From assembly GCA_017468385.1 (NCBI GenBank), contig JAFUIQ010000032.1:71272-135271 (forward strand): a DNA stretch of 64,000 bases, written 5' to 3'. The notes under the pieces are model-generated. The model did no database searches. It worked only from the letters and a program-made list of their open reading frames with translations, and had not been told where the DNA came from. This DNA comes from Clostridia bacterium (GTDB taxonomy: Bacteria; Bacillota; Clostridia; Oscillospirales; CAG-272). This document shows positions 9,627 through 62,243 of the stretch, piece by piece (positions within the stretch are counted from its first letter, which is position 1; every line of letters starts with the position of its first letter). The translations under genes were made by a program, and so were the position numbers.

Positions 9627-12600
9627 TCAGCGGCAAATCACCGCGTCCTCTCCCAGAATACAGCGCAGTTCCCGCAGAACGAAATCGTTCAGTTCCACGC
9701 CGTACCCGTCCGCGCGAAAATATTTGCCGGCAGATGCGTCATAGAACACCACGGGGAAAGATCCGGGGAATATTTCAATAAAACTTTCCGCTCGTTTGTA
9801 CTGCTCGCTGTCCATGCTCTCCACTTTCAAATACAGCTTAGCCGGTGACTTCTTCTCCTCCTTCGTTGGCGCAGAGGGGGATTTCAGCGGCACAAACGAT
9901 GCGTTATCGCTGAGCAATTTGGCACTCCGAAGCAGGATTTTGGGCTCCTCTTCTTCCCGCAGAGAGATGGTTCCGCTGATGGCTACCGCCTCATTCAGAA
10001 GGAGAGCAGTCCCAAAGGCTTCCAGTGATTTGGCGAACACGATCACCTCGATTTCGCCGGTGCGGTCCTCCACCGTAAGAAAGGCCATCTGTTCCCCGCC
10101 CCGGGTGGCCTTATTCTGGCGGCGGGCAATGATGCCGGCGATCTTCACGGGCTGTTTATCGGCGTACTGCTTTCCGCCGCCGGCGGGAACTTCCTCCTCC
10201 ATCTCATCGGAGGCAAAGGATGCTTTGATCGACGCGATGGAATCCGGCTGAATCTGTTCCACATGGCGGGAGTAGTCGTCCAGGATATGGCCGGAGAAGT
10301 AGAGGCCTGAGCTGTCCTTTTCCAGCGCCAAGAGCTCCCTTGCGCTGTATTCGGGAATATCCGGCAAGGAGATGGCGGGGATGGCGGGGCCATCCTCCAC
10401 AGCCGCGGGGGTGGAAAACAGATCCAGCTGACCGGCCACGCTTTGCCGATTGGCCGCGGAGCGGGCATCCAGCACGGTTTCGTACACGGTAAGCAACTGA
10501 CTGCGTTTCGCTCCCAGACCATCCAGCGCGCCGGATTTGATCAGCATTTCCAACTGACGTTTGTTGCTGATCGTGTCGCCCATGCGGTGCATGAAATCGT
10601 CAAAGGAGGCGAATTTGCCGCCGCGCTTCCGCTCCGCCAGCAGGGATTCCACAAAGGGACGTCCCAGATTTTTGAGAGCCAGCAGACCGAAGCGGATATT
10701 CTTTCCGTCCACATGGAAATCCCGATCGCTCTCGTTGACGTGGGGCGGCAGGATTTTGATTCCCACCCGGGCACACTCGGCGATATACTCCGCCATTTTA
10801 TCGGCGGAGCCGAGGACAGAAGTGAGAAGCGCGCTGTTGTATTCACGGGGATAATGGGCCTTCAGATAGGCAGTGCGGTACGACAGCACACCGTAGGCCG
10901 CCGCATGGCTTTTATTGAAAGCGTAATTGGCAAATCCCACGATCTCCTCGAAGAGATCGGCGGCCGCACTTTCCGCAATGCCTCGCTCTGCCGCGCCGGC
11001 AAGGAAGGAAGCACGCTCGCTTTCCAAAACAGACAGTTTCTTTTTGGAGATAGCGCGGCGGACGATGTCCGCCCGTCCCAGAGAATAACCCGCCACCACG
11101 CGGAAGATCTGCATAACCTGTTCCTGATAGACGATGCATCCGTTGGTCACATCCAGAATCGGTGCCAACAGGGGGGTGGCGTAGCGGATGCGGGAGCGGT
11201 CACGGCTGTTCTCGATATATTTGGGAATAGAATCCATGGGGCCGGGACGGTACAGCGCGATGGCCGCGATAATGTCATCGATCCGCTCCGGCTTCATCTG
11301 CATCAGCGTTTGCCGCATACCGCCAGACTCCAATTGGAATACACCTTCCGTTCTGCCCGCCGTGATCAGATCGAAGGTACGGCGATCATCCACGGGAATG
11401 GCGGAAATATCGAAGACGGGATCCTTCTCCCGGATCTGCTCCTCCGCCTGCGAGATGATCGTCAGGTAGCGAAGCGCCAGAAAGTCAAATTTCAAAAGGC
11501 CCAGATCGGCCACCGTGTTCATATCGAACTGGGTGACCGGAATGGTACTGTTGACGGCAAGAGGAACGTATTCACTGATCGGCCTCTCGGTAATGACCAC
11601 GCCGGCGGCATGGGTGGACGCATGGCGGGGCATGCCCTCCAGCGCCATGGCGGTATCCACCAGGCGGCGCACATCGGGATCCTCATCATACATTTTTTTG
11701 AGGCCGTCCATCTTCAAGGCATCCGCCAGAGTGATCCCCAAGGTGCGGGGAATCTGGCGGGCCACTTCGTCCACATCCGCATAGCTCATGCCGAGGGCCC
11801 GTCCCACGTCCCGGATGACGGCACGGGCGGCCATGGTACCGAATGTGATGATCTGGGCGGTATGATCCGCGCCGTATTTATCCCGCACGTAGGCGATGGC
11901 CTCATCCCGTCGGTCATAGCAAAAGTCGATATCGAAGTCGGGCATGCTAACCCGCTCGGGATTCAGAAAACGCTCAAAGAGCAAGTCAAACCGCAGGGGG
12001 TCGATATCCGTGATTCCCAATAGATACGCCACAAGACTGCCCGCACCCGATCCGCGTCCGGGGCCCACGGGGATGCCCGCGGATTTGGAATGGCGGACAA
12101 AATCCCACACGATCAAATAATACTCGCTGTATCCCATCCGGGCAATGACGGACAATTCGTACTCGATGCGTTCCCGATACTGGGATTCTTCCCTTCCCGC
12201 CGTAAAGACGATATGGCCGGCCGCCACACGGGATGCCAGGCCTTCCCACGCCAGGCGGGCCAGGTACTCGGAGGGATCCGATCCGTCCTCGGGCCGGAAA
12301 CGGGGGAGCTGTGTCTCGCCGAATGTGAAATGGAAATCGCACATATCGGCGATTTTGGCTGTATTCGCAATGGCACCGGGATACGCGTCGAAAAGCCGCT
12401 CCATCTCCGCGGTGGATTTCATATAGAACTCATCGGTTTCAAAGCCGATGGGGCGCCCGTCGGTGATCACGTTGTTGGTCTGGATGCACATGAGGATCGC
12501 CTGGGACTCCGCGTCGCCCCGGCGCAGGTAATGGACATCGTTAGTGGCCACCAGAGGGATACCCGTCTTTTCGGATATGTCCAGAATCGCCCGGTTCACC

Positions 12601-28803: not shown

Positions 28804-28879
28804 CTGGGTGTGGCGCAGTTGGTAGCGCGCTACCTTGGGGTGGTAGAGGCCGCTGGTTCAAGTCCAGTCACTCAGACCA
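28804..28879 (+). tRNA. tRNA-Pro (anticodon GGG), CCA encoded
   Basis: A 76-nt cloverleaf was folded by hand. Acceptor stem CTGGGTG/CACTCAG, D-arm GCGC/GCGC, anticodon stem CTACC/GGTAG with loop TTGGGGT, T-arm GCTGG-TTCAAGT-CCAGT, discriminator A, then CCA. Confidence 0.92.
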
Positions 28880-28890
28880 AGAAAACGGGA
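28835..28890 (+). repeat. attL: direct repeat covering the tRNA-Pro anticodon loop to 3' end
   Basis: The 45 bp at 28835-28879 are identical to 55480-55524. The repeat extends to 56 bp with one mismatch. Confidence 0.9.
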
Positions 28891-29077: not shown

Positions 29078-30274
29078 ATGGCAAACATCACGAAACGAGC
29101 AAACGGTACATACCTTATCCGCGTATCCTGCGGTCTTGACGAAAACGGAAAACCGATTCAGCGGTCGAAAACCTTTCACCCGTCAAGTCTATCTCTCTCC
29201 GAAAGCAAAAAGCAGAAAGAACTTGAACAGTTTATTTTTGCATTTGAAAGCGAAGTCAAGGCGAACGCCGACATCATCAAGGCTTGTCCGAAGGAATATA
29301 CCTTCGCCGCATTTTGCACCGAATACAAAAAGATCAAGGCATCCATCCTGTCTCCCGACACTTGGAAATTCTACGAGAGAGTGCTTGACGAGTTTTTTAT
29401 TCCGCGACTTGGAAAGCTGAAGCTCACCGAAATTCAGCCTGCACACGCACAGCAGATGGTGAATATTCTCATGAAGCCGGGCAGCCGACAGGACGGCAAA
29501 GGAAAATATCTCTCCCCTGCCACGGTCAAACGATACATCACGGTACTGCAATCGGTGATGACCCTTGCCTGCAAGCAAGGCTTTGTTCATTCCAATCCAG
29601 CCGATGCAAAGAAGCTGGAAATCCCGAAATCCATCGCTCCCGATGTGGAGGTTTTCGATGACGATGAAACGCAGAACATCATCAATGCCCTTGAAAAAGA
29701 GCCGACTCACATCCGCGCGGTGATCTCGGTTGCACTGTACACAGGTGCAAGGCGAGGTGAGATTGTCGGCTTAAAATGGGACGATATTGACCTTGACGCG
29801 GGGACGCTGTCCATCAAGCGAAGCGTGTATAAGCCCCACGGCGAACCTGCACGGGAGAAGCCGCCGAAGACGGTCAGCAGTATCCGAACCATTGCCATTC
29901 CGCAGGTGCTTTGCGAAATACTGCGCGAGCATAAGTCTGAGCAGGACAAGCGGATTGCCTATCTCGGTGACAGTTGGTATCGTGGGAATTATGTTTTCAC
30001 CGAAGCGGACGGTCACGTGATGAATCCGCAAACGCCCACAAAGCAGTTTGACCATTTTCTGAAACGACACGGCATTCGTCATCTGAAATTCCACGGACTT
30101 CGTCACACATCGGCAACCTTGCTTCTCGCAAACGGCTGTGATATCAAGACGGTTTCCTCCCGTCTTGGGCATACTTCGATTGACACAACAAATATTTATC
30201 TGCACGTTCTGGCAAAGGCAGACAAGGCTGCGGCAGATTGCTTTGACAAAATGGCAGAGAGAAAGGTAAATTGA
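29078..30274 (+). CDS. Tyrosine-type site-specific integrase (Int1)
   Basis: N-terminal arm-binding-like region (NGTYLIRVSCGLDENGK). Catalytic R (TGARRGEI), HxxR (HGLRHTSAT) and Y (TNIYLH). AGGAGG RBS. Adjacent to the tRNA. Confidence 0.93.
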   Translation: MANITKRANGTYLIRVSCGLDENGKPIQRSKTFHPSSLSLSESKKQKELEQFIFAFESEVKANADIIKACPKEYTFAAFCTEYKKIKASILSPDTWKFYERVLDEFFIPRLGKLKLTEIQPAHAQQMVNILMKPGSRQDGKGKYLSPATVKRYITVLQSVMTLACKQGFVHSNPADAKKLEIPKSIAPDVEVFDDDETQNIINALEKEPTHIRAVISVALYTGARRGEIVGLKWDDIDLDAGTLSIKRSVYKPHGEPAREKPPKTVSSIRTIAIPQVLCEILREHKSEQDKRIAYLGDSWYRGNYVFTEADGHVMNPQTPTKQFDHFLKRHGIRHLKFHGLRHTSATLLLANGCDIKTVSSRLGHTSIDTTNIYLHVLAKADKAAADCFDKMAERKVN

Positions 30275-37475: not shown

Positions 37476-38558
37476 TTATTGTTTATCGCATATTTTTATT
37501 CCTAATTTAAGAGCACAACTACGGCATTCATTTTGATTACAATCACTACATTGAGCTTGTTGCTCTGCAATAAACGCATTAAACTGTTCGGAATTCCATG
37601 CTTCCAAAATGCTATTTTTATTCAAATCTACTCGATACTTATCTTCCATCCACCCAAAAGAACAAGGATAGGCTTGATTTTCGCAATCTATATACATAGA
37701 GAATCTTGCTGATTCACAATACTCCAATGATTCTTCCGCAATCATTTTCCCATACACTTTTAGAGCAGGAGTCTGACACGAATCAAATCCAACTTTGAAT
37801 TTATAGTTTCTACTACTTACCAAATGTATAAACTGTTTGTATAACGTATCGTTTATCGTTGGCATTTTAAAAAATTCACCTTGTCCCACAGGCTTATATA
37901 ACAAAAAGACGCATGCATTTATACCTTGTGGAAAAAGATTATTTTCTAACCGATAAATTATTTCATCAATATTTTGTTTCGAAATTACATAATGAATATT
38001 TGTAGTACATCCTGCCTCAATCAAACGTTGTATTGCTTGTATTGTTGTATTATTTGATTCTTGTCCATCTCTACACAATTTGGAATAAAACGATACCGCC
38101 ACCGCTCCGCAATATTTTTTCATTAAACTAATTTCATCATCTGTTAATTGATATCCGCTTGTCGTTAAATTAGGAACTATACGATTACTTCGTGTTGTTT
38201 CAAGAATATCCTCAAATCTTTCATGTTTATTAGGATCACCAGCCCCACCCAATGCAACTTGAAATGTTTTTCCTTTGCTTTGATCAATTATTCTTTTATA
38301 AGTGTCAAACGACATATTAGCACGCTTTCGTTCTGAAGCATTTTGATAGCAGTCTACACCAGCAACTTTACACATTCCGTTATCACAAGCAGTACAAGTG
38401 CCCATAATACCTATATCGATAAGTTCCGGATATGAGCGTCTTAGAGGAGAAATAGATGTCTCTTCTCCGCTTTCTATAATATTGCTCCTCATTAGAAATC
38501 CAGTGTCTTCGTTAAACCATTCAACAAATTTATATTGTTTATCCTTGTAAATAATCAT
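37476..38558 (-). CDS. Radical-SAM-fold / SPASM-like enzyme with a non-canonical N-terminal Cys motif
   Basis: GGEP-like ALGGAGDP motif, TSG block (NLTTSGYQL), AVSFYS, and a C-terminal Cys cluster (CESARF..DCENQAYPCSF...CSDCNQNECRSCALKLGIKIC). The N-terminal cluster reads CTACDNGMC. ATG 38558 is 1 nt after the upstream stop. The ORF-track start at 38606 is a TTG. Confidence 0.65.
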   Translation of the reverse strand: MIIYKDKQYKFVEWFNEDTGFLMRSNIIESGEETSISPLRRSYPELIDIGIMGTCTACDNGMCKVAGVDCYQNASERKRANMSFDTYKRIIDQSKGKTFQVALGGAGDPNKHERFEDILETTRSNRIVPNLTTSGYQLTDDEISLMKKYCGAVAVSFYSKLCRDGQESNNTTIQAIQRLIEAGCTTNIHYVISKQNIDEIIYRLENNLFPQGINACVFLLYKPVGQGEFFKMPTINDTLYKQFIHLVSSRNYKFKVGFDSCQTPALKVYGKMIAEESLEYCESARFSMYIDCENQAYPCSFGWMEDKYRVDLNKNSILEAWNSEQFNAFIAEQQAQCSDCNQNECRSCALKLGIKICDKQ

Positions 38559-38559
38559 G

Positions 38560-38967
38560 TTACCACACGCAATTCTTCCCGTCCATGTAAAAATCTTTTT
38601 TATCAATAATAAAGCAATCTGTAGTCATAAATGATGCAAGACATTCATCATCAGAACTTGTATAACCGATGTATGTATGAAATCCTTTTTCAGTTAGTTT
38701 GCGATATTTTTCGGCGCTTTTCTCACCAAATATTTTTAAAATGTTTTCATAGTTGATTTCGTCAACATCAAACCACCGAACCCCTCGACTTGTTCCGAAG
38801 ATAATTTGATCGGATAAGTCATCTCCCAATGGACGAAAAATGGCATTGCTTTTGAATCCTAACTTTTTTGATAAGTATTCCAGAGTTAATTCCTTTTTAC
38901 ATATAATCATAAAATTAGTTGAAGAACTGTTTGTTACAAAACCATCTCTAATCTTCATTTCTATCAT
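38560..38967 (-). CDS. Hypothetical protein (about 135 aa)
   Basis: Tightly coupled inside the NTPase/radical-SAM operon. It has an N-terminal DGFVTNSSSTNF motif and no assignable domain. Confidence 0.6.
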   Translation of the reverse strand: MIEMKIRDGFVTNSSSTNFMIICKKELTLEYLSKKLGFKSNAIFRPLGDDLSDQIIFGTSRGVRWFDVDEINYENILKIFGEKSAEKYRKLTEKGFHTYIGYTSSDDECLASFMTTDCFIIDKKDFYMDGKNCVW

Positions 38968-39325
38968 CACCCAACCATTTTTCTATAATTTCTCGCATAT
39001 CATCATGCTCTAAAAAATCCTTTATATTAGTATCAGGAGTAGATGATAAGTCTTTACAAAATAGACGCCATGAAGCCATTTTTTTTGCTTCACCCTCAAA
39101 CATATTGTATTTACTTACAAGGAATTCTTCAAATGAACCAAACTCCTTTCTATAATACATAAAGTATTCAGCAAAAAGGTTATTCGATCCACCACAAAAA
39201 TAATCGTACATCCGTTTAACAATACTTCCTGCATAACTATTCTTTTTAACCCCCAAAAAGTGGTAAACCCCTACTGAAGATGTATTAAAACTTTTTTTAT
39301 AAAAATATAGAGTGCCTATGTTCAT
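38948..39325 (-). CDS. Hypothetical protein (about 125 aa)
   Basis: Sits between the NTPase and the next small gene. ATG 39325, with TTG 39346 as an alternative. No assignable domain. Confidence 0.55.
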   Translation of the reverse strand: MNIGTLYFYKKSFNTSSVGVYHFLGVKKNSYAGSIVKRMYDYFCGGSNNLFAEYFMYYRKEFGSFEEFLVSKYNMFEGEAKKMASWRLFCKDLSSTPDTNIKDFLEHDDMREIIEKWLGDDRNED

Positions 39326-39338
39326 TCTTTCACTTCTT

Positions 39339-41621
39339 TCAGTCAAATTGTTTTAGAAAACCCTTAATACTATAAACACCATTCGTTGACGTTCTATTTT
39401 TGCGTTGTTTTAAATTACCGACCTTGTCTCTTAGTGTTCTACACTTTGATTTACAAATGATAAAATCATATAATGAATCTTGAAACTCTATAGGTAATCC
39501 CGCCTTCGTCCAATACCATTCGGTGAATTCATATGAGAAAATCAATAGCAAAATCATCCTTATATTATCCGAAATAATCCCCCTCCTTGAATGACACATA
39601 TCAATTTTATTATACAAGATCTCAATTAATTTTGGACGATCATGATAATACTTTTCTTGTTTGACAAGTTCAACTATCAAGGCCGAAAGTATCTCATCGT
39701 CAGTTACGCTAAAAATAATATCCAAATATTGGTGTAGGTCTGGTTTTTCATTGGCTATTTCGTTGTTGAGTAAGAAAAAGAATACTTGGACATTGCTACG
39801 GATTGATTCTTTGATTGCATCATGAACGTAAGTTCTCTCGTATTCTTCGAGGTTATTTCCGCTCATATAAATTAGTGTTAATCCAAAATCATCGAAGTAA
39901 TAAGTCTTTTCTCGCTCATATCGAGTCATCCGGTTGTAATTTTGAATATCATCCTTCCCATACACAACAAGTATTTTTTCTGATAAATCAAAACGAGTAT
40001 TCTTCTTAAAATAGTAATATCCATATTTTAGCACACCTTCAAGTGGGGCTATATGGTTTTCACTCATATGTGTAATAACGCTAAAATACGGAGTAAATTT
40101 GTTATCGCCGATATCTTCGCATCGAATAATAAGTTCTCTTGCAATACAAAAATCCCTAAACTCATCAAAAATAAAATAGAGAAATTCATTTGTTCTTTCA
40201 GAAAGTCCGTTCCCCAATTTTATTGTTTTATTAATCAATAGATTATTATCCAACATATCAAATAATGCTCTTTTTTCTGAGTCAGATAAATATAATTCAC
40301 TTATATCAATTTTGTCATAGCATTGATTATCAATCATTATTGATGAGATTTGTTTGATTATTCTTTGAACATCTATCTCCGTATGTTCTGAAGCTACTTT
40401 TTCGATATATTGTTTATATATTTCTGCATTCTGGAACTCTAAATTCTCGTGAGGTCTACCACAATTTACCTCGAAAAAGATTTTCATAAGAAACAATGAT
40501 TTGTTTATTTTATTTTTAACGTTTGAGGAGAACTGAATTGGTACGTTATAATAATTACTATATTTCGTAAAAAATTTTGTTATTGCGCGAGAATCATAGT
40601 CCGCGGTATTCAACTGAATGATATGTGGATGTATTTCGCTTGCATCAAACAACTTCTTATATCGACAATCAAAATATTCGCTTCTACAAGATAGAATTAT
40701 TTTAACTCTATTGTATCTATCAAAAAAATCAAAAACCTTTCCTATTGACTTCAAAAATTCGCTTGAATCATTTTCATTGATTGCATCAATTATTACGAAA
40801 ATGTGTTTTTGGCTAAACTGAAGGATAATATTTACAATCCAAAGAAATACTCTTGGATGTTTTCTTACTTTCCACATTAATGGAAGCTTATTCAAAACAT
40901 AGTCTATTACATTGCCATCTATATCTCTTGAATTAATGAGCAAACAGGGATAATTATTTCTCATAGCAGTTTCCGTCGCACGGCAAAGCAAGCTGGTTTT
41001 TCCGTTTCCGGCACTTCCTACGATGATTAGATTTTTACATTCTATTTTAGAACAACATGAAAGCAAATCATCGATGACATTTATGCAATCGTAAGTTAAG
41101 TTTTGTGCAATATAATAAAACTCCCCTAATTCCTCTCGTTTTATCTTTCGATCATCTTTAAATTCTCGTAAAACATTATTTGTTTCTACCAATATTTTCT
41201 TCAAAGTGGTGAATTTAGAGAGATAGGATATTTTGTAATATATCTTGTTTTGATAAGTTTGCTTTAATTGTGCTCCTACATACCCTTTAAACAATAAGTT
41301 ATATCTTCTAATAATTCTCCATTTCCAACAATATGAGAATATGAAATATCTCAAATACTCCATATTATCATTTAGTTCAACATAGAGATCGGGAGCATAT
41401 TTTTTCACTCTAATAAAATCATCTATTTGCTTTTGACTAATCTTATTTACCTTTTTCTTAAACAGAATGATGCATGTAAAAAAAACTATTATGAACACTC
41501 CGAAAGTTAATATGCTCCATAGCGTCTGTCCTTTACCGATACAATTGAGCAATTCATCAAAGCTGAAAATACTATTTTGGGATTGCACTGCTTGTGTATT
41601 TGTAACAGAAGTTTCCGTCAT
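39339..41621 (-). CDS. Membrane-anchored STAND/NACHT-like P-loop NTPase
   Basis: 760 aa with an N-terminal TM helix (LWSILTFGVFIIVFFTCIILF). Walker A is IIVGSAGNGKTS and Walker B is IFVIIDAINE. A long helical C-terminal region follows. The gene is AT-rich. Confidence 0.75.
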   Translation of the reverse strand: MTETSVTNTQAVQSQNSIFSFDELLNCIGKGQTLWSILTFGVFIIVFFTCIILFKKKVNKISQKQIDDFIRVKKYAPDLYVELNDNMEYLRYFIFSYCWKWRIIRRYNLLFKGYVGAQLKQTYQNKIYYKISYLSKFTTLKKILVETNNVLREFKDDRKIKREELGEFYYIAQNLTYDCINVIDDLLSCCSKIECKNLIIVGSAGNGKTSLLCRATETAMRNNYPCLLINSRDIDGNVIDYVLNKLPLMWKVRKHPRVFLWIVNIILQFSQKHIFVIIDAINENDSSEFLKSIGKVFDFFDRYNRVKIILSCRSEYFDCRYKKLFDASEIHPHIIQLNTADYDSRAITKFFTKYSNYYNVPIQFSSNVKNKINKSLFLMKIFFEVNCGRPHENLEFQNAEIYKQYIEKVASEHTEIDVQRIIKQISSIMIDNQCYDKIDISELYLSDSEKRALFDMLDNNLLINKTIKLGNGLSERTNEFLYFIFDEFRDFCIARELIIRCEDIGDNKFTPYFSVITHMSENHIAPLEGVLKYGYYYFKKNTRFDLSEKILVVYGKDDIQNYNRMTRYEREKTYYFDDFGLTLIYMSGNNLEEYERTYVHDAIKESIRSNVQVFFFLLNNEIANEKPDLHQYLDIIFSVTDDEILSALIVELVKQEKYYHDRPKLIEILYNKIDMCHSRRGIISDNIRMILLLIFSYEFTEWYWTKAGLPIEFQDSLYDFIICKSKCRTLRDKVGNLKQRKNRTSTNGVYSIKGFLKQFD

Positions 41622-41678
41622 TTTTGTTACCCTTTCATTTTTCTGTTGCTTTTCAATGATACTCTGGCATAGACATTA

Positions 41679-41707
41679 TATATATATTATCTAAGTGTAT
41701 TGTTCAA
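41679..41707 (-). promoter_or_regulatory. Candidate promoter of the NTPase/radical-SAM operon
   Basis: On the minus strand, TTGAAC (41707-41702), 17 bp spacer, TATATA (41684-41679), about 55 bp upstream of ATG 41621. Confidence 0.4.
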
Positions 41708-55479: not shown

Positions 55480-55535
55480 TTGGGGTGGTAGAGGCCGCTG
55501 GTTCAAGTCCAGTCACTCAGACCAGGAAAACGGGA
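55480..55535 (+). repeat. attR: duplicated 3' part of tRNA-Pro (no 5' half)
   Basis: The 45 bp are identical to 28835-28879, and the following 11 bp have one mismatch. No acceptor or D-arm lies upstream, so this is not a functional tRNA. Confidence 0.9.
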
Positions 55536-55560
55536 ATCTTACGATTCCCCGTTTTTCTTT
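55527..55560 (+). terminator. Terminator hairpin after attR (probably the original tRNA-Pro terminator)
   Basis: AAACGGGAATC / GATTCCCCGTTT stem followed by TTTCTTTTG. Confidence 0.7.
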
Positions 55561-55861
55561 TGTTTTCTTGCAAAAGTTCGTGAAATCGCGCGTTTTCGTG
55601 ATATAAAGAATGGGCTTGTTCTTCCCTGCTCCCGGGGTTGAACAAGCCCATTTTTCGCCTTTGACCACATGTAAGACCATAGTCGGTGACCACATGAGTG
55701 AATTTGGCGGTGGAGCTGTGCTGCTCGGGCGCCTTTTCTTTGATTATGCGGTGCAGGATTTGATATGTGATTAAGCCCAGTTTTTGCCTTTGACTGTATG
55801 TTTGATCAGTTGCGGAGATTTTTACACTTTTCTACGATATGAAAAGTGCAAATTTTTATAA

Positions 55862-56050
55862 TTACTTGCTACTGTTTGGATTAGTATAGAATTCCATATA
55901 TCCGCATTTCTCACAAACGTATACATATACCGGAGAATACGATGTTTGTGTTAGAGCAAATGGTGGGCGAATCTTTTCTTCCCCCCAGATATCTATTTTT
56001 GTATTGATTGTTCCCTTTATCATTTCATTTCCGCATTTTACGCAATCCAT
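55862..56050 (-). CDS. Small zinc-ribbon protein
   Basis: 62 aa with CxxC (CVKCG) and CxxC (CEKCG). AAAGGA RBS. Last gene of the CBASS-like operon. Confidence 0.55.
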   Translation of the reverse strand: MDCVKCGNEMIKGTINTKIDIWGEEKIRPPFALTQTSYSPVYVYVCEKCGYMEFYTNPNSSK

Positions 56051-56066
56051 ATTTCTTCTTATCCTT

Positions 56067-56630
56067 TCATTCTATAAAATCCAAAATAGTGTTATACATC
56101 TGTTTGAGGCGCAAACTTCCTAATCCCGTATAGTCATGGGCAGCTACAAAATTAAATTGTTTATGAAAATCCCCCATATGGTCTACATAAACCGAAGGTT
56201 CACCAAATTGATCAGCAGTAATATCAATAATCAATCCGTGATTAATATCTGTTTCTTCATAATTGCACAGTTCAATTTTTTCCTCATATTGATTGCCCCC
56301 GTATTGGTTCAAGAACGATCTTACAACACACGGTATTTCTACATAGCGTATTGTGGGGGCCTTTATACGCTTATCTTTTACAACAAGCCATGCATGTGAT
56401 TGTCCGTCAAGATCTCCGCAAACGTAAATTGTTTTAATATCTTTATGGTATAAATATTCTCCCAAAAGATAGCATGTATCGCCACAACATGCTTTGGGGA
56501 AGTTATAAAATGAAAAATCTTTTACAAACAAGCCTGCATCTCGTGCTCTTTCAGTTGCCACCTTAAAATCTGATGCATAACTAAAAATTATATCATCATT
56601 AGTCATTAGAAAAATGCTCCTTATTAACAT
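56067..56630 (-). CDS. Hypothetical protein, possible papain-like/transglutaminase-like Cys-His-Asp fold
   Basis: 187 aa. Candidate triad residues are in CCGDTCYLLGEY, SHAWLVV and IDITADQF. The start is 16 nt downstream of the nucleotidyltransferase stop. ATG 56606 is an alternative start. Confidence 0.5.
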   Translation of the reverse strand: MLIRSIFLMTNDDIIFSYASDFKVATERARDAGLFVKDFSFYNFPKACCGDTCYLLGEYLYHKDIKTIYVCGDLDGQSHAWLVVKDKRIKAPTIRYVEIPCVVRSFLNQYGGNQYEEKIELCNYEETDINHGLIIDITADQFGEPSVYVDHMGDFHKQFNFVAAHDYTGLGSLRLKQMYNTILDFIE

Positions 56631-56645
56631 ATTTCTATTTCTCCG

Positions 56646-58121
56646 TCACTTGATGTTAACAATGAATATTTTACTTTGAGCGACACAACGCCCTTTTTTT
56701 ATTACGAAGCATTGTATTGCATGTGAGCCAGTATATAGTGTGCTTTCGCGGTGCTTTATCTCATTTACGCCTTCTTCTGAGAATTCACCACGCAATCCAT
56801 TTACGGATCTTGCTTGATAACCAGTATTTACAACTTGCCATTTTAACTTAAATGGTTTTTGTACACCACTAAATCCTGCTATGAATACAATTGAGCAATC
56901 TTTGTCTATAGGTGCGTCATCGCTTTTATACCTATATTTGATACCATCTGGTTTCTCAATTGTAGCTCCAATGATAACCCTATATCCCCTGGGATAACTG
57001 GGTAATTTCTGCCGTTGCGGAGCCGATAATATTGCCTGCACTTTATAGGGAACGAGTGCTTTCTCTACCCCTTCGCAATCGTTAGAGGATTCAGTTATAA
57101 CTGCATTATTGCCTCTAAAAACAAACTGAGTTACACTACGTCCTAAAGCGCATTCTACAAGCGTTGCAATCTCAACGTCAGATTGTGCTGTAGTAAAATT
57201 ATCCATCAAATCCTTTTTGGCATCATCAAGCCAGTTCAAAAACGCTTCTGCTCTTTCGGGATGTTCTTCCCACTTGTCTGCAAAGTTTTCGCTGGGAAGG
57301 CTGGGATTGTATATATAGTACTTTCCGTTTTCCTTATGTTCTTCCACATATTCCTTGGCACTGCCCAAAATGGAGTTTAGTGTTTCAGTTATTGTACCTT
57401 CATTTTTGTACAATTCAGCAGCAATGGTCGTTATCAAAATGGAGATCGGTGTAAGGTTATCGGTGTCATCCTTAAAAAGGATATCCCTGTGGCGTTTCAA
57501 TATCTGAATGGCCTTTTGTAAAGGAGTTCTGATCTTATACTCTTTAATAGGTTGAATTTCTCCGTATGTATAAATCCCCTTTTGATTAGCTACTATACCA
57601 GTCCGAATCGCGTTATAGCGAATACGTTGCTTGGATTGAAACCAAAAAATATATCCCTTGGGGTTGCTACCGATATACTCATATCTCTCGGCTGAAAGCT
57701 GTTCAGTAATATCGATATAGTTTCCTCTAAGCACCGCCGGGATTACATCAAGATGGAATTTTTTATTGTGCTCATATGTAACCTGCCAACAACGACGTTT
57801 TTCTTTAATACGAAAAGCTCTTGCATACCCGGTGAGAACAGAGTACACTTCTGTTTTCTTTAGGCGTTTGGCAGTAAATCCGTAGTCCTTTTGATATTCA
57901 CATACCAAATCCACATCATACTCATCTTCTCTCTCGTACGGTTTTACTGCAGTTCCTAAAGCGAACGAACCCTGTGGATAGATCACGATGTCGTAATCCT
58001 TGGAATTCTCCTCGATCCATTTGGCTATTTTCTTATACTCTGCCTCAGCATAATCAAACATTTCCTCAGATATATTGATTGCATCCGCTATTTTTTCGTA
58101 TAAAGTTTCTCTGTCAATCAT
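56646..58121 (-). CDS. SMODS/CD-NTase-type nucleotidyltransferase with a C-terminal extension (AGS-C-like)
   Basis: Pol-beta NTase signature QGSFALGTAVKP...DYDVDLV with the third acidic residue in HLDVIP. 491 aa. 1-nt gap after the Cap5-like gene. Confidence 0.75.
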   Translation of the reverse strand: MIDRETLYEKIADAINISEEMFDYAEAEYKKIAKWIEENSKDYDIVIYPQGSFALGTAVKPYEREDEYDVDLVCEYQKDYGFTAKRLKKTEVYSVLTGYARAFRIKEKRRCWQVTYEHNKKFHLDVIPAVLRGNYIDITEQLSAERYEYIGSNPKGYIFWFQSKQRIRYNAIRTGIVANQKGIYTYGEIQPIKEYKIRTPLQKAIQILKRHRDILFKDDTDNLTPISILITTIAAELYKNEGTITETLNSILGSAKEYVEEHKENGKYYIYNPSLPSENFADKWEEHPERAEAFLNWLDDAKKDLMDNFTTAQSDVEIATLVECALGRSVTQFVFRGNNAVITESSNDCEGVEKALVPYKVQAILSAPQRQKLPSYPRGYRVIIGATIEKPDGIKYRYKSDDAPIDKDCSIVFIAGFSGVQKPFKLKWQVVNTGYQARSVNGLRGEFSEEGVNEIKHRESTLYTGSHAIQCFVIKKGRCVAQSKIFIVNIK

Positions 58122-58122
58122 T

Positions 58123-59247
58123 TTAATCTCCTATTGTTAAGGTTTCAAAGAAATCTCCGTCCCTGTCATAAATGACCATTTTAGGATATACACCTACCAT
58201 GTATCTTCTTCCCATTTCAAAAGCCGCAGATACAGGTACTGCCGGGAATACTGATAGCTCTTCTTTGCCTTTTAAACTCTCACATAGCTCTTTGTATTTA
58301 TGCCAAAAGGCAGAAAGGTCTTGCTCGCTTTTAATGCTTTCATCTCCTTGACGATCCGCACGCAGAATGTATACGGTCTTAAAAGTAGCCACCTTAAGAA
58401 CTGCCTCCATTTCAATTTCAGCAGTAACCGACAGCACAATCGCAATACCAACTCCGCTTTCAAATGTCTTTTCTTCAACCTTAAAATCATTAGTGAGTAC
58501 TGTGCTTTGCCACTCCCATGTGTCGAGCTGCTTTGTTTTTTGATAAACATTGGCACGCATCTTATCTCCCATAAGAAATCCCAGCTTTACAATCAACGGA
58601 ATTGGCGCTAATGGAAAAACAGAAAGGTGAGTGTTAGGGCAATTATTAACTTTGGATCTCACAGTATAACAAAAATGATTATCCAGCCACTGCTCTGCTT
58701 TTTGCCAATATTCCTCACTCCTATACTCTCCGAAGGCAGGAACTGATATCGTCATGGCATATTCTGATTCTGCTCTCATACGAGGCAGGAACGCCTTCGC
58801 TGCTTCTCTTGCGGAGAAGGAATCGCTTTGTTTTCCTTTTATAGGTGAAGTAAGGTGAAGCATCATGGTTACATCGGCGTTAAGGTTGTCCATTAACTTT
58901 TGAACCCGTTCTTCCTGTGATGCTTTCATTGCGTTCAACCTTTCAACTGTGTAAATGTGTTCCCGCCCTTTTTCATCTATCAAATGATGATGGTCTAAAC
59001 ACATCAACATAAGATTTTCGATTTTATCTGACATTGCAAACGACAGTGTTTGACTCCCCCTCGGGCCTTTTGGACTGGATGCGATTATATGTGCAACATT
59101 GGAGTCATTAGTATCGTCCAATGTAACTTCATCCAAAAAAATATTTTTATTGCAGTTTTCGAACTGACATCTACCACCTGCTCGTGCGATTAGAATACTA
59201 ATCGTTTTGGGAGAAGGAGCAGGCCCCCTATTCTTACTCTTTGACAT
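58123..59247 (-). CDS. cap5: HNH endonuclease-SAVED effector (Cap5-like)
   Basis: N-terminal HNH (CQFENC...VAHIIA...NLMLMCLDHHHLID). The C-terminal region has two SAVED-like repeats (LSVFPLAPIPLIVKLGF and LSVFPAVPVSAAFEMG). AGGAG RBS. Confidence 0.75.
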   Translation of the reverse strand: MSKSKNRGPAPSPKTISILIARAGGRCQFENCNKNIFLDEVTLDDTNDSNVAHIIASSPKGPRGSQTLSFAMSDKIENLMLMCLDHHHLIDEKGREHIYTVERLNAMKASQEERVQKLMDNLNADVTMMLHLTSPIKGKQSDSFSAREAAKAFLPRMRAESEYAMTISVPAFGEYRSEEYWQKAEQWLDNHFCYTVRSKVNNCPNTHLSVFPLAPIPLIVKLGFLMGDKMRANVYQKTKQLDTWEWQSTVLTNDFKVEEKTFESGVGIAIVLSVTAEIEMEAVLKVATFKTVYILRADRQGDESIKSEQDLSAFWHKYKELCESLKGKEELSVFPAVPVSAAFEMGRRYMVGVYPKMVIYDRDGDFFETLTIGD

Positions 59248-59316
59248 AATCTCTCCTATTGTTAACTATTTGCAATGGTTCAATGTGGCATATCTTCTTT
59301 GTCTACAGCGGTGTTT

Positions 59317-59805
59317 TTATTGACCACCAACAACATCCCCCGTCCAATCAAGAATCCCGCCGAACTCCACGATATTCGTATACCCAAGCTTGACCAGCTT
59401 CTCGGATGCCTCTTTACTGCGCCGTCCACTTCGGCAGTACACCATAATGAGCTGATCCTTGTCCGGCAGTTCAGGAATCTCCGCCGTGCCGATAGTTTCA
59501 TTCGCAATATTTATCGCATTTGGAATATGCTTTTCAGCGAATTCGTCAGGTCTGCGAACATCGAGAATGATGTAGTCGCTCTCCTGTGCCATCATGGTAA
59601 CAGCTTCGTCCATACTGATCTGGCGGTAGGCGTTCTTCTGTTCTTGGTTAATCATATCATCATTTACCTCGGTGCTGGCTGCACCGATTTCCTTTTCTGT
59701 AGTGTTTTCCGTATTATCACCGCACGCGCTAAGCAGAACTGCAAGTGAAATTGCGGCGGCGATTATGATTAATCTTTCCTTCATTTTCAGTGATTGCCCC
59801 TTCAT
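59317..59805 (-). CDS. Rhodanese-domain lipoprotein
   Basis: Lipobox LLSACG. Rhodanese active-site loop YCRSGRRS. GAGGA RBS for ATG 59805, with ATG 59784 as an alternative. Confidence 0.85.
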   Translation of the reverse strand: MKGQSLKMKERLIIIAAAISLAVLLSACGDNTENTTEKEIGAASTEVNDDMINQEQKNAYRQISMDEAVTMMAQESDYIILDVRRPDEFAEKHIPNAINIANETIGTAEIPELPDKDQLIMVYCRSGRRSKEASEKLVKLGYTNIVEFGGILDWTGDVVGGQ

Positions 59806-59808
59806 TTA

Positions 59809-60705
59809 TCATTCCTCATAAGGAACCCTGAAATAATCAAGCCACGACTTGAACGTATCCTGTGCCGACAGGCATGTATCCGTGAGGAATCCCTTCTCTC
59901 TCGGCCATTCCGTCAGCCCACGATAGTAGAACATCTTGAGTTTTTCATCGATCACAAAAGGCACGATATTATACTTCAGGCATTCCTTAAACAGAAGCAG
60001 CCTGCCGACTCTGCCGTTGCCGTCCTGGAACGGATGAATGCACTCGAATCGGTAATGAAAATCAAGAATATCCGAAAGTGACTTTTCTTCCAAACTGTTA
60101 TAATCAGCAAGTAACTTCTTTATGGCATCTGCGACTTCTTCCGGAGCAGCGGTGTCCTTTCCGCCGACCTCGTTCGGAACTTTTTTGTAATCTCCTACCG
60201 CAAACCAATCCAGTCGGCTGTCGGAGGTTCCGCTTTTCAGAATGAAATGAAGCTGTTTGATGAGCGCCTCGGTGATGTTCGCACTCGCACGGTCAATAAC
60301 AAAATCAATGCATCGGAAATGATTTGCCGTTTCCACAATATCATCGACATTCACAGCATCAGCGGTAATACCAACCGTGTTGGTTTCGTAAATATATCTC
60401 GTTTGATCGTGTGTCAGACGGCTGCCTTCGATGTGATTGGAATTGTAGGTCAACTCGATCTGTATTTTATGATAGATTCCGCCGGACAGCTTTGCACTTT
60501 TTTCCGTTTTGAGTACTTCAAGCAAAGTTTTCGGTTCTGCGGAAGCTTTTTTCTTTCGTCCCGGCTTTTCGGCATTTTCGGGGATCGTCCACGTTTTGCC
60601 GATCAGTTCGGCTCCATCAACCCGACCTTCCGCGCAGTAATTCCGCACACTTCGCTCGGATATCCCCCATTTTTTTGCTGCTTCGGCTACAGAAATATAG
60701 TTCAT
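59809..60705 (-). CDS. Fic/DOC family protein with an N-terminal HTH (Fic2, paralog of Fic1)
   Basis: Fic motif HPFQDGNGRVGRL and N-terminal AAKKWGISERSVRNYCAEGRVDGA. ATG 60705 has GAGGTG upstream. Confidence 0.88.
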   Translation of the reverse strand: MNYISVAEAAKKWGISERSVRNYCAEGRVDGAELIGKTWTIPENAEKPGRKKKASAEPKTLLEVLKTEKSAKLSGGIYHKIQIELTYNSNHIEGSRLTHDQTRYIYETNTVGITADAVNVDDIVETANHFRCIDFVIDRASANITEALIKQLHFILKSGTSDSRLDWFAVGDYKKVPNEVGGKDTAAPEEVADAIKKLLADYNSLEEKSLSDILDFHYRFECIHPFQDGNGRVGRLLLFKECLKYNIVPFVIDEKLKMFYYRGLTEWPREKGFLTDTCLSAQDTFKSWLDYFRVPYEE

Positions 60706-60815
60706 AGAATCACCTCTATCCAATCGATAAATATATTATACCACATTATCGGCAAAATTTATATGGCATTTTGTAAATAATATTACTTCAATTTTGCCGA
60801 TAACGGCAATAAACA

Positions 60816-60838
60816 GGGGTGAACGATTCGTTCACCCC
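60816..60838 (-). terminator. Terminator hairpin after Int3
   Basis: Near-perfect palindrome GGGGTGAACGA-T-TCGTTCACCCC directly after the stop codon, followed on the minus strand by TGTTTATT. Confidence 0.7.
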
Positions 60839-60839
60839 C

Positions 60840-62243
60840 TCACATTCTCCCCAACTCCGCCTTCACTTCCTTGATCTTCTCCGCCAATTTCGCCTCGCAT
60901 TCCGCCTCCGTCGCGCCGTACACATTATAACTCACACGCTTGCCATCCACTCTCGGCGTGTACCGACCCTGCCAGCAGTTCGCGGAGAGCTGCTTCACAT
61001 AGCCGGTGCCGCGCTTGCGATACTTGCCTTCGGTCGGCACGAATGCGGGCGCTTCTTCGCTCGGTTTATCGGCGGTGTCGGTTGGTTCTTCCTCCGCCGC
61101 TTCCACACCGGCGATCGCGCGGTCGATTTTCTGCGCCGCTGCTGCCTGCATCTCTGCCGTGCTGTGTGTGTAGGTGTTGATCGTAGTCGCCACCGTATTG
61201 TGCCCGAGAATCTCCGCGAGAGTCTTGATGTCGATCCCGTTCTCCAATGCCATCGTCGCGAAGGTGTGCCGCAGATCGTGGAAGCGGACGTGCTTGCATC
61301 CGGCGCGCTCGAGGATATCCGACAGCCGCTTTCGGACGGAGGACGGTTCCCGCGGATTGTCCGGATTCACCGGCGACGGAAAGATCCACTTGCCGCTTGA
61401 CGACTTTTTGTATTCCGCCAGCACATACAGCGTGAAATCCGACAGCGGAACCGGCCGCGCCGAGCGTTTCGTCTTCGGTGTATTGACGGCAAGCTTGCCG
61501 TCCACCCGATTCACCTGCCGCCTGACGTGGAGGTTCTTTTTCCTGAAGTCCACGTCATCCCACTGCAGTCCGAGCAATTCCCCTCGCCGCAGACCCGTAG
61601 AGAGGTCGAGGAAGAACAGCTCGAACAGTCCCTCTGCCTTCGCCTGAACCAGCATCCGATGCATCTCCTCATGCGTCAGCACCTTCACCTCCCCGTGGTG
61701 TTTCGGCGGCAGTTTACAGTCGCTTGCGGGATTGCTGACGATCAGTCCTTCCTCCACCGCTTTGTTCAGTGCCGCGTTGCAGTGTGCGTGGATGGCGCGG
61801 ATGTGCGCATCGGACAGCGAAGTCCCGTTTGTTTCCCGTCGGATCAGCCGTCCGTCCGTTTTCAGATGTGCGTAGAACGCCTGCAGATCGTTGGTTTTCA
61901 GTTCCGCCAGCGGAATGTGTCCGACGTTCGGGATGATCTGCTGGTAAATGCGGTAGCCGTAGGTCTGCTTCGTGGTATCCTTCAGCTGCGGGGAGCAGAA
62001 TTCGCGGAACCAGAAGTCGATCCATTCGCCGAAGGTCATGTTCTTGCCGTACTTCGGCTTTTCTTCAATTTCAAGGCTTTCCTTCAGCGCTTTCAGCTTC
62101 TTCAGACATTCGCCTTTGGTCTTGGCAAGCACGTTTTTCGTCTTCGGAAGTCCTTTTTCATCGTAGCCGATGACAACTCTGCCTTCCCAGCGGCCGTCCT
62201 TGCGGTGACTTACGCCTCCCGTGCCGTTTTTTCTTCTGCCCAT
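60840..62243 (-). CDS. Tyrosine-type site-specific integrase (Int3) with N-terminal AP2/arm-type domain and a second arm-type module at the C-terminus
   Basis: N-terminal GTGGVSHRKDGRWEGRVVIGY. Catalytic R (TGLRRGEL), HDLRHTFAT and Y (INTYTH). The C-terminal tail is GTGYVKQLSANCWQGRYTPRVDGK. AGGAGG RBS. Confidence 0.9.
   Translation of the reverse strand: MGRRKNGTGGVSHRKDGRWEGRVVIGYDEKGLPKTKNVLAKTKGECLKKLKALKESLEIEEKPKYGKNMTFGEWIDFWFREFCSPQLKDTTKQTYGYRIYQQIIPNVGHIPLAELKTNDLQAFYAHLKTDGRLIRRETNGTSLSDAHIRAIHAHCNAALNKAVEEGLIVSNPASDCKLPPKHHGEVKVLTHEEMHRMLVQAKAEGLFELFFLDLSTGLRRGELLGLQWDDVDFRKKNLHVRRQVNRVDGKLAVNTPKTKRSARPVPLSDFTLYVLAEYKKSSSGKWIFPSPVNPDNPREPSSVRKRLSDILERAGCKHVRFHDLRHTFATMALENGIDIKTLAEILGHNTVATTINTYTHSTAEMQAAAAQKIDRAIAGVEAAEEEPTDTADKPSEEAPAFVPTEGKYRKRGTGYVKQLSANCWQGRYTPRVDGKRVSYNVYGATEAECEAKLAEKIKEVKAELGRM

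Follow-up and report, generated by a model that had tools for sequence, protein, structure and literature searches.

A mobile four-gene cassette encodes a short Avs2-like STAND NTPase, two paralogous small proteins and a radical-SAM/SPASM enzyme

Here we describe a cassette of four co-oriented, tightly coupled open reading frames (ORFs) on the minus strand of a 64,000-nucleotide (nt) stretch of DNA from a Clostridia bacterium (contig JAFUIQ010000032.1, positions 71,272 to 135,271). This whole stretch is referred to as the window, and all coordinates below are positions within it. The genes, g1 to g4, encode a short Avs2-like STAND NTPase, two small sister proteins and a radical S-adenosylmethionine (SAM) enzyme with a SPASM domain, and they travel together on mobile DNA across many bacterial phyla. 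We tentatively propose, at somewhat less than even confidence, that the four genes provide abortive infection against phages through an NLR-like switch of the Avs2-type STAND kind, with an adaptor that would be matured by g4. A search of the literature returned no published description of this cassette and no experiment on any of its members.

Results

The cassette is a conserved unit carried by mobile elements

We scanned one genome per species with a g3 profile and recovered 64 loci (labels of the form Lnnn denote retrieved loci and contigs used for comparison). The genes g1-g2-g3-g4 were present in the same order in 59 of the 64; of the remaining five loci, two were cut by contig ends and three, all metagenome-assembled genomes (MAGs) of Deltaproteobacteria, carried no g1. 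Thus the co-occurrence of the four genes across genomes, which the initial annotation had put forward as a point to check, holds, and the genes form a unit that is conserved and moves horizontally. Its carriers belong to the Bacillota, Bacteroidota, Spirochaetota, Campylobacterota, Pseudomonadota and other phyla, and include Clostridia, Bacilli, Veillonella, Bacteroidales, Treponema, Sulfuricurvum, Melainabacteria, Fimbriimonadaceae and Thermoanaerobaculaceae. The cassette was also found in Desulfitobacterium hafniense and on plasmids of Agrobacterium (pAt of strain Ach5), Rhizobium and Rhodobacter. Among cultured carriers are A. tumefaciens Ach5 (WP_038496262, WP_038496259, WP_051489734 and WP_038496256), Veillonella parvula, Lachnobacterium bovis DSM 14045 and Acetatifactor muris DSM 23669.

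The DNA on which the cassette rides resembles integrative and conjugative elements (ICEs), prophages or plasmids, and recombinases are among the flanking genes. In a Pfam tally of 135 flanking ORFs, the raw counts were seven integrases, five C5 methylases, four each of AAA_15 and AAA_21, three each of ResIII, GmrSD and Fic, and two each of HaeIII, NgoFVII and AbiH. Pfam was used for this tally, the PADLOC scan of the flanks being dominated by redundant methylase models. The defence-island context suggested earlier is borne out in that the setting consists of mobile-element and defence DNA.

g1 is a short Avs2-like STAND with an exchangeable N-terminal head

The first gene, g1 (39339..41621, minus strand), is an ORF of 760 amino acids (aa) encoding a short Avs2-like STAND/NACHT-type NTPase. 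Three features first noted in its sequence are present: the Walker A motif GSAGNGKTS (40992..41018, minus strand), placed at residue 202 by a pattern search of the translation, the Walker B motif FVIIDAINE, and a single N-terminal transmembrane (TM) helix. The helix covers residues 36-54 (41460..41516, minus strand), has a mean Kyte-Doolittle hydropathy of 2.76 across these 19 residues, and forms a putative effector head; about 40 distinct orthologues of the short clade have an equivalent helix. In other orthologues the TM head is replaced, either by a trypsin-like protease (at least eight: L054, L055, L057, L059, L061, L062, L064 and L103) or by a SMEK nuclease (at least eight: L052, L053, L063, L065, L067, L069, L070 and L072). 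Swapped N-terminal heads on a conserved core are a hallmark of immune STANDs, and the g1 family displays this arrangement of a variable effector on a conserved core.

The PADLOC Avs2 profile aligned with g1 residues 139-504 over profile positions 281-664 of 1,504 (E = 2.5e-22), and with g1 orthologues down to E = 3e-27 (L049). As had been anticipated, the cassette falls under none of the PADLOC v2 system models; the expectation that none of the four genes would be hit failed for g1, because of this match to the Avs2 core. Pfam models stayed below their cut-offs on g1, with nSTAND3 at 19.7 bits (cut-off 27.2), NACHT at 13.6 (26.7) and NB-ARC likewise short, and the g1 orthologue in L052 cleared the NACHT cut-off at 38.1 bits. 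A search of the g1 sequence against solved structures gave no match at E < 1. The nearest plasmid relatives of g1 outside the cassette carry Avs2 annotation, and together with the Avs2 profile these relatives uphold the assignment of a STAND/NACHT-like fold.

An exhaustive search placed g1 in a family of 552 clusters at 50% identity, most of them 650-790 aa long. The best clusters fell within this range; after them came proteins of 800-1,080 aa, with the match beginning 150-480 residues in. Long Avs2 proteins (~1,300 aa) were absent among the 150 best relatives listed, whose lengths ran from 116 to 1,077 aa. Like Avs2 (AVAST type 2), g1 has an NTPase core and a pre-NTPase helical region that align with the profile, and swappable N-terminal heads. 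It differs in that only about 25% of the profile is covered, in having no terminase-sensing C-terminal domain, and in going with three partner genes. Judged by its sequence, g1 is an Avs2-like STAND without the full Avs2 architecture, the long C-terminal sensor being absent.

The protease-headed clade includes a six-gene form (L101 of D. hafniense and L103-L105), in which a gene of the metallo-beta-lactamase fold (Lactamase_B) lies upstream of the cassette and an M1E1E6-like gene (PF21648) downstream. The D. hafniense g1 consists of two ORFs, one of 428 and one of 495 aa.

g2 and g3 are distant paralogues, and g3 bears an invariant N-terminal tag

The small genes g2 (38948..39325, minus strand; 125 aa) and g3 (38560..38958, minus strand; 132 aa) had been described as two proteins without recognisable domains. 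Indeed, g2 gave no match in Pfam, PADLOC, NCBIfam or PHROG; the two are distant paralogues rather than unrelated proteins, though, as iterated profiles of g2 and g3 cross-matched and hhalign aligned them at 93.4% (E = 2.5e-7, 96 columns). By this comparison g2 is a degenerate g3 paralogue that has no tag. In locus L044, g1 and g2 form one ORF, with g1 at residues 16-741 and g2 at 767-886, so that g2 is fused to the C-terminus of g1. Because of this natural fusion we suggest that g2 binds g1, and g2 is probably an adaptor bound to the NTPase.

The g3 protein is an alpha/beta protein of unknown fold. It is very conserved, its family comprising about 1,379 clusters at 90% identity, and none of the 120 best clusters listed carried a Pfam annotation. 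An AlphaFold2 model of g3 reached a mean predicted local distance difference test (pLDDT) score of 88.4, with a score of 52 for the N-terminal 10 residues, and Foldseek found no structural match for the model in the PDB or BFVD. These terminal residues belong to an invariant feature of the family, a tag of the form MKIRxGFVTNSSS (MKIRDGFVTNSSSTNFMI in the window; 38905..38958, minus strand). Positions 8-13 (VTNSSS) were essentially invariant among 107 distinct g3-family proteins, of which 105 open with MK[IV]R at Met1. Because homologues open in this way, the g3 start at 38958 is likelier than the ATG at 38967; the 20-nt overlap of g2 and g3 first reported stands only with the latter, and the likelier start gives 11 nt. 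The tag is thus invariant and, according to the model, predicted to be flexible. In every locus that is not shortened by a contig end, g3 adjoins g4.

g4 is most closely related to radical-SAM/SPASM peptide maturases

The last gene, g4 (37476..38558, minus strand), encodes 360 aa. Profile matches and Foldseek agree on the radical-SAM fold and C-terminal SPASM region assigned initially. On g4 itself, Radical_SAM (PF04055) scored 29.2 bits, just under its cut-off of 29.5, and SPASM (PF13186) scored 25.5 bits against 21.5; g4 orthologues, those of the Deltaproteobacteria, cleared the Radical_SAM model at 51-53 bits. No NCBIfam equivalog was matched by g4, and in PHROG it matched phrog_7293.

The canonical CxxxCxxC motif is absent from g4. 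In its place is the conserved pattern GIMGxC-x7-C-x6-CYQ, whose non-canonical cluster motif C-x7-C-x6-C occupies residues 55-70 (38349..38396, minus strand). The three cysteines, C55, C63 and C70, are invariant and, in an alignment with orthologues, fall on the ITNxCxxxCxFCY of divergent family members, so that the clade of g4 in the window has two 4-residue insertions between the same three cysteines. To our knowledge the Cx7Cx6C spacing has no precedent. Conserved cysteines of the SPASM region are C261, C281, C299, C337, C345 and C348.

An AlphaFold2 model of g4 (pLDDT 80.9) matched SuiB best in Foldseek (2e-12, probability 1.00), followed by CteB, PqqE and anSME, with viperins at about 1e-7. 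The g4 family profile ranked PDB sequences similarly: SuiB 2e-20, SkfB 6e-13, PqqE 8e-11, anSME 9e-10, and viperins 0.003-0.03. The analogy to viperin drawn initially is therefore weak, viperins falling far below peptide maturases in structure and in sequence searches. We likewise rejected a viperin-like assignment on the NCBIfam viperin model, which scored 15.4 bits against a cut-off of 180. On these comparisons, g4 is of the radical-SAM/SPASM type whose members modify peptides and proteins, with the peptide maturases as nearest kin, and binding of [4Fe-4S] clusters and cleavage of SAM are predicted.

SuiB, SkfB, CteB, PqqE and anSME share with g4 the C-terminal set of auxiliary-cluster cysteines and, like SPASM maturases, g4 is encoded beside its putative substrates, sometimes in several copies. 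The cassette departs from maturase systems in that g4 has no PqqD domain or recognition element (RRE) of the kind found with peptides that are made on ribosomes and modified after translation (RiPPs), in that no protease or exporter is encoded, in that the putative substrate of g4 is a folded protein with an N-terminal tag, and in the stretching of the cluster motif to Cx7Cx6C. It also does not resemble a RiPP cluster, since g3 is a folded 132-aa protein and the cassette's conserved genes include neither a protease nor a transporter.

g4 homologues accompany arrays of tagged proteins in Deltaproteobacteria and large phages

Additional loci carry g4 and the tag with no STAND gene. In Deltaproteobacteria MAGs (L051, 9310-12503; L056, 263-4662; L066), g4 is accompanied by three or four tandem tagged g3-like genes, and the neighbours are housekeeping genes, encoding methylenetetrahydrofolate reductase and fructose bisphosphatase. 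A 1,495-aa ORF upstream in L051 was considered as an Avs2 and rejected, its product being a flavin/Fe-S oxidoreductase.

Large viral contigs (46-250 kb; L080-L095 and L096-L099) similarly encode a g4-like radical-SAM enzyme, scoring 374-382 bits, followed by tandem arrays of two to nine tagged genes, again with no STAND. The array in L098 (6249-11478) consists of nine genes, each opening with MK.R..FVTNSSSSS[FY], whose products have unrelated acidic bodies of 99-184 aa; among these paralogues the tag is 73% identical and the body 17%. This array adjoins a phage-type RNA ligase. The Cx7Cx6C variant is common to host and phage versions of g4. Full-length g4-family radical-SAM/SPASM proteins are also encoded in 167 records of cultured T4-like phages, among them KP15, Miro and RB43, with gp135 of KP15 (L100, 5848-7050) scoring 179 bits on the g4 profile. 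No g3-like gene was found near the radical-SAM genes of the cultured T4-like phages or anywhere across the cultured-phage collection.

The g4 homologue of L099 (5684-8004) carries an interruption. Positions 4-89 and 89-135 of the g4 profile are both matched within a 591-aa ORF, about 400 residues apart, and the remainder of g4 lies in a second ORF after it. An intein or a homing element may account for the insertion.

The conservation of a terminal tag across otherwise divergent proteins, whose genes always lie beside a radical-SAM enzyme of the peptide-maturase type, is best explained if the tag is the recognition or modification site of g4, and we regard it as the probable site on g3 as well.

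The cassette resembles the KpAvs2 operon in outline

The initial annotation knew of no described system that combines a STAND with a radical-SAM enzyme. KpAvs2 is such a system (Bechon et al. 2024, PMC11564622). This Avs2, headed by an Mrr nuclease, requires Avap2, a DUF6375 protein that binds it, and against phage T2 it also requires the radical-SAM protein Avap1, for which no 3'-deoxy-3',4'-didehydro (ddh) nucleotides or other viperin-type product were detected (PMC11564622). The two operons share an Avs2-type STAND with an N-terminal effector, a radical-SAM enzyme and an accessory protein of about 130 aa. They differ in that the STAND here has 760 aa and no long sensor, against ~1,300-1,500 aa for the KpAvs2 type and 1,280-1,420 aa for Avap-linked STANDs on plasmids; in that two paralogous small proteins without a DUF6375 match occur here; in that the radical-SAM enzyme here has SPASM and groups with RiPP maturases; and in gene order, which is STAND-small-small-radical-SAM here and radical-SAM-DUF6375-long Avs2 there.

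We compared the parts directly with those of five Avap-type plasmid operons, from Vibrio, Picosynechococcus, Synechococcus and, twice, Deinococcus. The DUF6375 model (PF19902) matched 0 of 48 g2 and g3 sequences with HMMER. Against the five DUF6375 proteins, hhalign gave 2.8% for g3 (P = 0.016, compared with 0.18 for a reversed control) and 0.2% for g2, and profile-profile comparisons in local, low-mact and global modes were not significant; both proteins were rejected as members of DUF6375 (Avap2). What resemblance is left between g3 and DUF6375 proteins lies in a similar size and an MKIxxG[FY] opening. As for g4, hhalign scored it at 98.9% against Avap1-like proteins, a match that proved to reflect generic radical-SAM similarity when a control enzyme was scored on the g4 profile. 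On the g4 profile, Avap1-like proteins reached 40-73 bits and an unrelated plasmid radical-SAM enzyme 85, so that g4 was rejected as an Avap1 orthologue; Avap1-like proteins also have no SPASM cysteines. The g1 protein scored 30-58 bits against Avap-linked STANDs and 67 bits against a stand-alone Avs2. Thus the cassette is like the KpAvs2 operon in outline, and by sequence comparison no part is demonstrably orthologous.

Radical-SAM matches on plasmids of E. coli, Salmonella and Klebsiella were also considered as Avap1 and set aside: the E. coli match inspected (L071) is a lone gene, the Klebsiella matches cover only a quarter of the query, and an operon is seen with none of them. On one Vibrio plasmid, pLH80-1 (L073, 7953-14639), an IS3 element splits the large STAND gene of an Avap1-Avap2-Avs2-type operon, which lies beside brxL of BREX. 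Identical copies of its DUF6375 protein occur on 12 Vibrio plasmids.

With pVip, Ophion and HXS the cassette has in common a radical-SAM enzyme within an anti-phage system, actual or proposed. The HXS radical-SAM enzyme is reported to mature a protein effector. These systems have other partner genes and no STAND NTPase, and g4 is not a viperin.

The cassette in the window lies on an integrated element

The four packed, co-oriented genes first described are confirmed as ORFs, on the minus strand, as are the 13-nt gap between g1 and g2 (an 8-nt overlap if TTG is used) and the 1-nt gap between g3 and g4. An independent gene caller gave lengths of 760, 125, 135 and 360 aa on metagenome copies of the element. 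The G+C content is 0.30-0.34 over 38-42 kb and 0.55-0.60 in the core, in agreement with the low value noted by eye. The TTGAAC-17-TATATA promoter proposed for the operon did not survive comparison with shuffled sequence, since sigma-70-like matches (21, against 24.7 +/- 5.7) occurred at the level of chance. A promoter and terminator scan found no terminator 3' of g4.

The island had been called tRNA-integrated, and its limits can now be set. A tRNA-Pro gene (28804-28879), a tyrosine integrase gene (29078-30274) and a 56-nt direct repeat with 98% identity together delimit an integrated element of about 26.7 kb. The repeat comprises attL, which is the 3' end of tRNA-Pro and the left boundary (28835..28890, plus strand), and attR, the right boundary (55480..55535, plus strand).

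Immediately upstream of g1, a T5orf172 gene and an Eco57I/ResIII fusion of 1,355 aa confirm the restriction-modification-like neighbours noted beside the cassette, and a Fic gene lies there too. The segment 41687-47836, co-oriented with the cassette, holds the T5orf172/MUG113 gene, two proteins of 217 and 114 aa in which no domain was detected, and the fusion, a ResIII helicase joined to an Eco57I methylase. Past attR, a second low-G+C stretch (0.35-0.47; 55536-61000) repeats in diverged form the sequences found at 48.9-50.5 kb, the region of the Fic gene among them (repeats D1, D4, D5 and D6), and may be a second, related island.

Elsewhere, the copy in L003 has a HaeIII restriction-modification pair and GmrSD upstream and, on its 3' side (10528-12282), a second radical-SAM gene, of the DUF5131 type, with a DUF4365 gene. 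One copy (L004-L006) is labelled Methanobrevibacter in its MAG record and encodes proteins typical of the Clostridia clade; it may represent a binning artefact or a transfer.

Discussion

The observations above establish which genes are present and that they are collinear, the classes of fold, the exchange of effectors, the paralogy of g2 with g3, the fusion of g1 to g2 and the conservation of the tag; beyond them, we infer a possible defence function with the following course. The g1 protein would be an ATP-driven switch and executioner that oligomerises on activation, its N-terminal head doing the damage; the TM helix of the protein in the window would perturb the membrane. Pairing with one another, g2 and g3 would stand in for the missing C-terminal sensor of Avs2, with g2 docked onto the C-terminal part of g1. 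The chemistry would be supplied by g4, which would recognise and modify the MKIRxGFVTNSSS tag of g3 and thereby mature the adaptor/sensor or set its state. That the radical-SAM enzyme modifies one of the small proteins was an alternative idea in the initial annotation and is the reading favoured here.

A defence function is suggested by the conservation of the unit, the Avs2-like core, the swapped heads, the mobile and defence neighbours and the precedent of KpAvs2. That g4 acts on the tag is suggested by the adjacency of g4 and g3 and by single g4 genes that accompany 3-9 tagged proteins in STAND-less loci, as well as by the difference in identity between tag and body, the predicted flexibility of the tag and the kinship of g4 to maturases.

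Several points weigh against this model. The tally of defence neighbours consists of raw counts without a comparison to genomic background, and the g1-g2 fusion is known from one MAG contig. Given the housekeeping neighbours in Deltaproteobacteria, defence is not intrinsic to the g3-g4 module. The invariant tag might alternatively serve g3 as a loop for catalysis or for ligand binding, or be a strand that docks onto g1, and g3 is modelled as a folded protein of ~130 aa, not a short peptide. Additionally, no RRE or PqqD domain is recognisable in g4, and an enzyme with a Cx7Cx6C motif that falls just under the Radical_SAM cut-off might be inactive.

Among other explanations, the cassette could be a very distant member of the KpAvs2-Avap family, with g3 (and g2) a diverged Avap2 and g4 a diverged Avap1. 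We consider this unlikely, although it is compatible with the model above. Both are made up of an Avs2-type NTPase, a radical-SAM enzyme and a ~130-aa protein; DUF6375 proteins have 130-143 aa and open with MKIWQGYGSEHS, compared with MKIRDGFVTNSS in g3; and the hhalign match of g4 to Avap1-like proteins includes the N-terminal extension. Set against this are the failure of both hhalign and PF19902 to link g3 to DUF6375, the ranking of Avap1-like proteins, devoid of SPASM cysteines, below a control radical-SAM enzyme, the reversed gene order, the different STAND length, and the fact that Avap-linked STANDs are no nearer to g1 than a stand-alone Avs2 is. The phage homologues bring in a guard or decoy arrangement, which we think quite unlikely: the cassette would monitor radical-SAM tag chemistry, with g3 as bait whose modification state, when altered by infection, releases g1. 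Triggers could be a phage g4-like enzyme, competing tagged phage proteins, phage SAM-degrading enzymes or lost reducing power. Large phages do carry g4-like enzymes with tagged arrays, the 167 T4-like records encode the enzyme (KP15 gp135 at 179 bits), and the phrog_7293 match and shared Cx7Cx6C spacing tie host and phage versions together; yet the cassette has its own g4, so that g3 would be modified constitutively unless regulated, and there is no evidence that cassette-bearing hosts encounter these phages.

A role outside immunity, in which the cassette would serve mobile elements in protein maturation or in addiction/maintenance and the STAND would act as regulator or toxin, is improbable in our estimation. 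It would accommodate g3-g4 beside housekeeping genes in Deltaproteobacteria and in phages, and the cassette's location on ICE-, prophage- and plasmid-like DNA, but the Avs2-like core, the exchange of nuclease, protease and TM heads typical of immune STANDs, and the recurrence of restriction-modification, GmrSD and Abi genes nearby speak for immunity. Production by g4 of a modified nucleotide or other diffusible product, which would either be an effector against viruses or signal to g1 and so activate it, seems very improbable to us. pVip and Ophion are precedents and PADLOC pVip models match weakly (3.6e-7), but the viperin profile reaches 15 bits against 180, maturases outrank viperins in structure and sequence, SPASM is typical of enzymes with peptide or protein substrates, an obligate tagged partner would be left unexplained, and no ddh-nucleotides were found in KpAvs2 (PMC11564622).

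Beyond defence, g4 and MKIRxGFVTNSSS may belong to an unrecognised protein-tag system, an idea we offer as doubtful. In it, a SPASM radical-SAM enzyme would place a radical-derived modification on the N-termini of folded proteins, a system that large phages would use on arrays of diverse small acidic proteins and bacteria would have wired into an NLR-like immune switch, the state of the tag controlling cell-suicide effectors.

The usual description of NLR-like proteins in bacteria is that of sensors made of a single protein. KpAvs2 showed that some of them need a radical-SAM partner, and the cassette, which is unnamed, is a relative in kind of that operon and not a new category; it provides a second, much more widespread example, whose carriers include gut commensals and the Agrobacterium pAt plasmid. 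In the cassette, STAND and radical-SAM enzyme are obligate partners, and the sequence reveals the likely substrate through an invariant tag at the N-terminus, which makes the role of a radical-SAM enzyme in an NLR system directly addressable by mass spectrometry. That large phages have this pair of enzyme and tag as well hints at a protein-modification system shared by hosts and their viruses.

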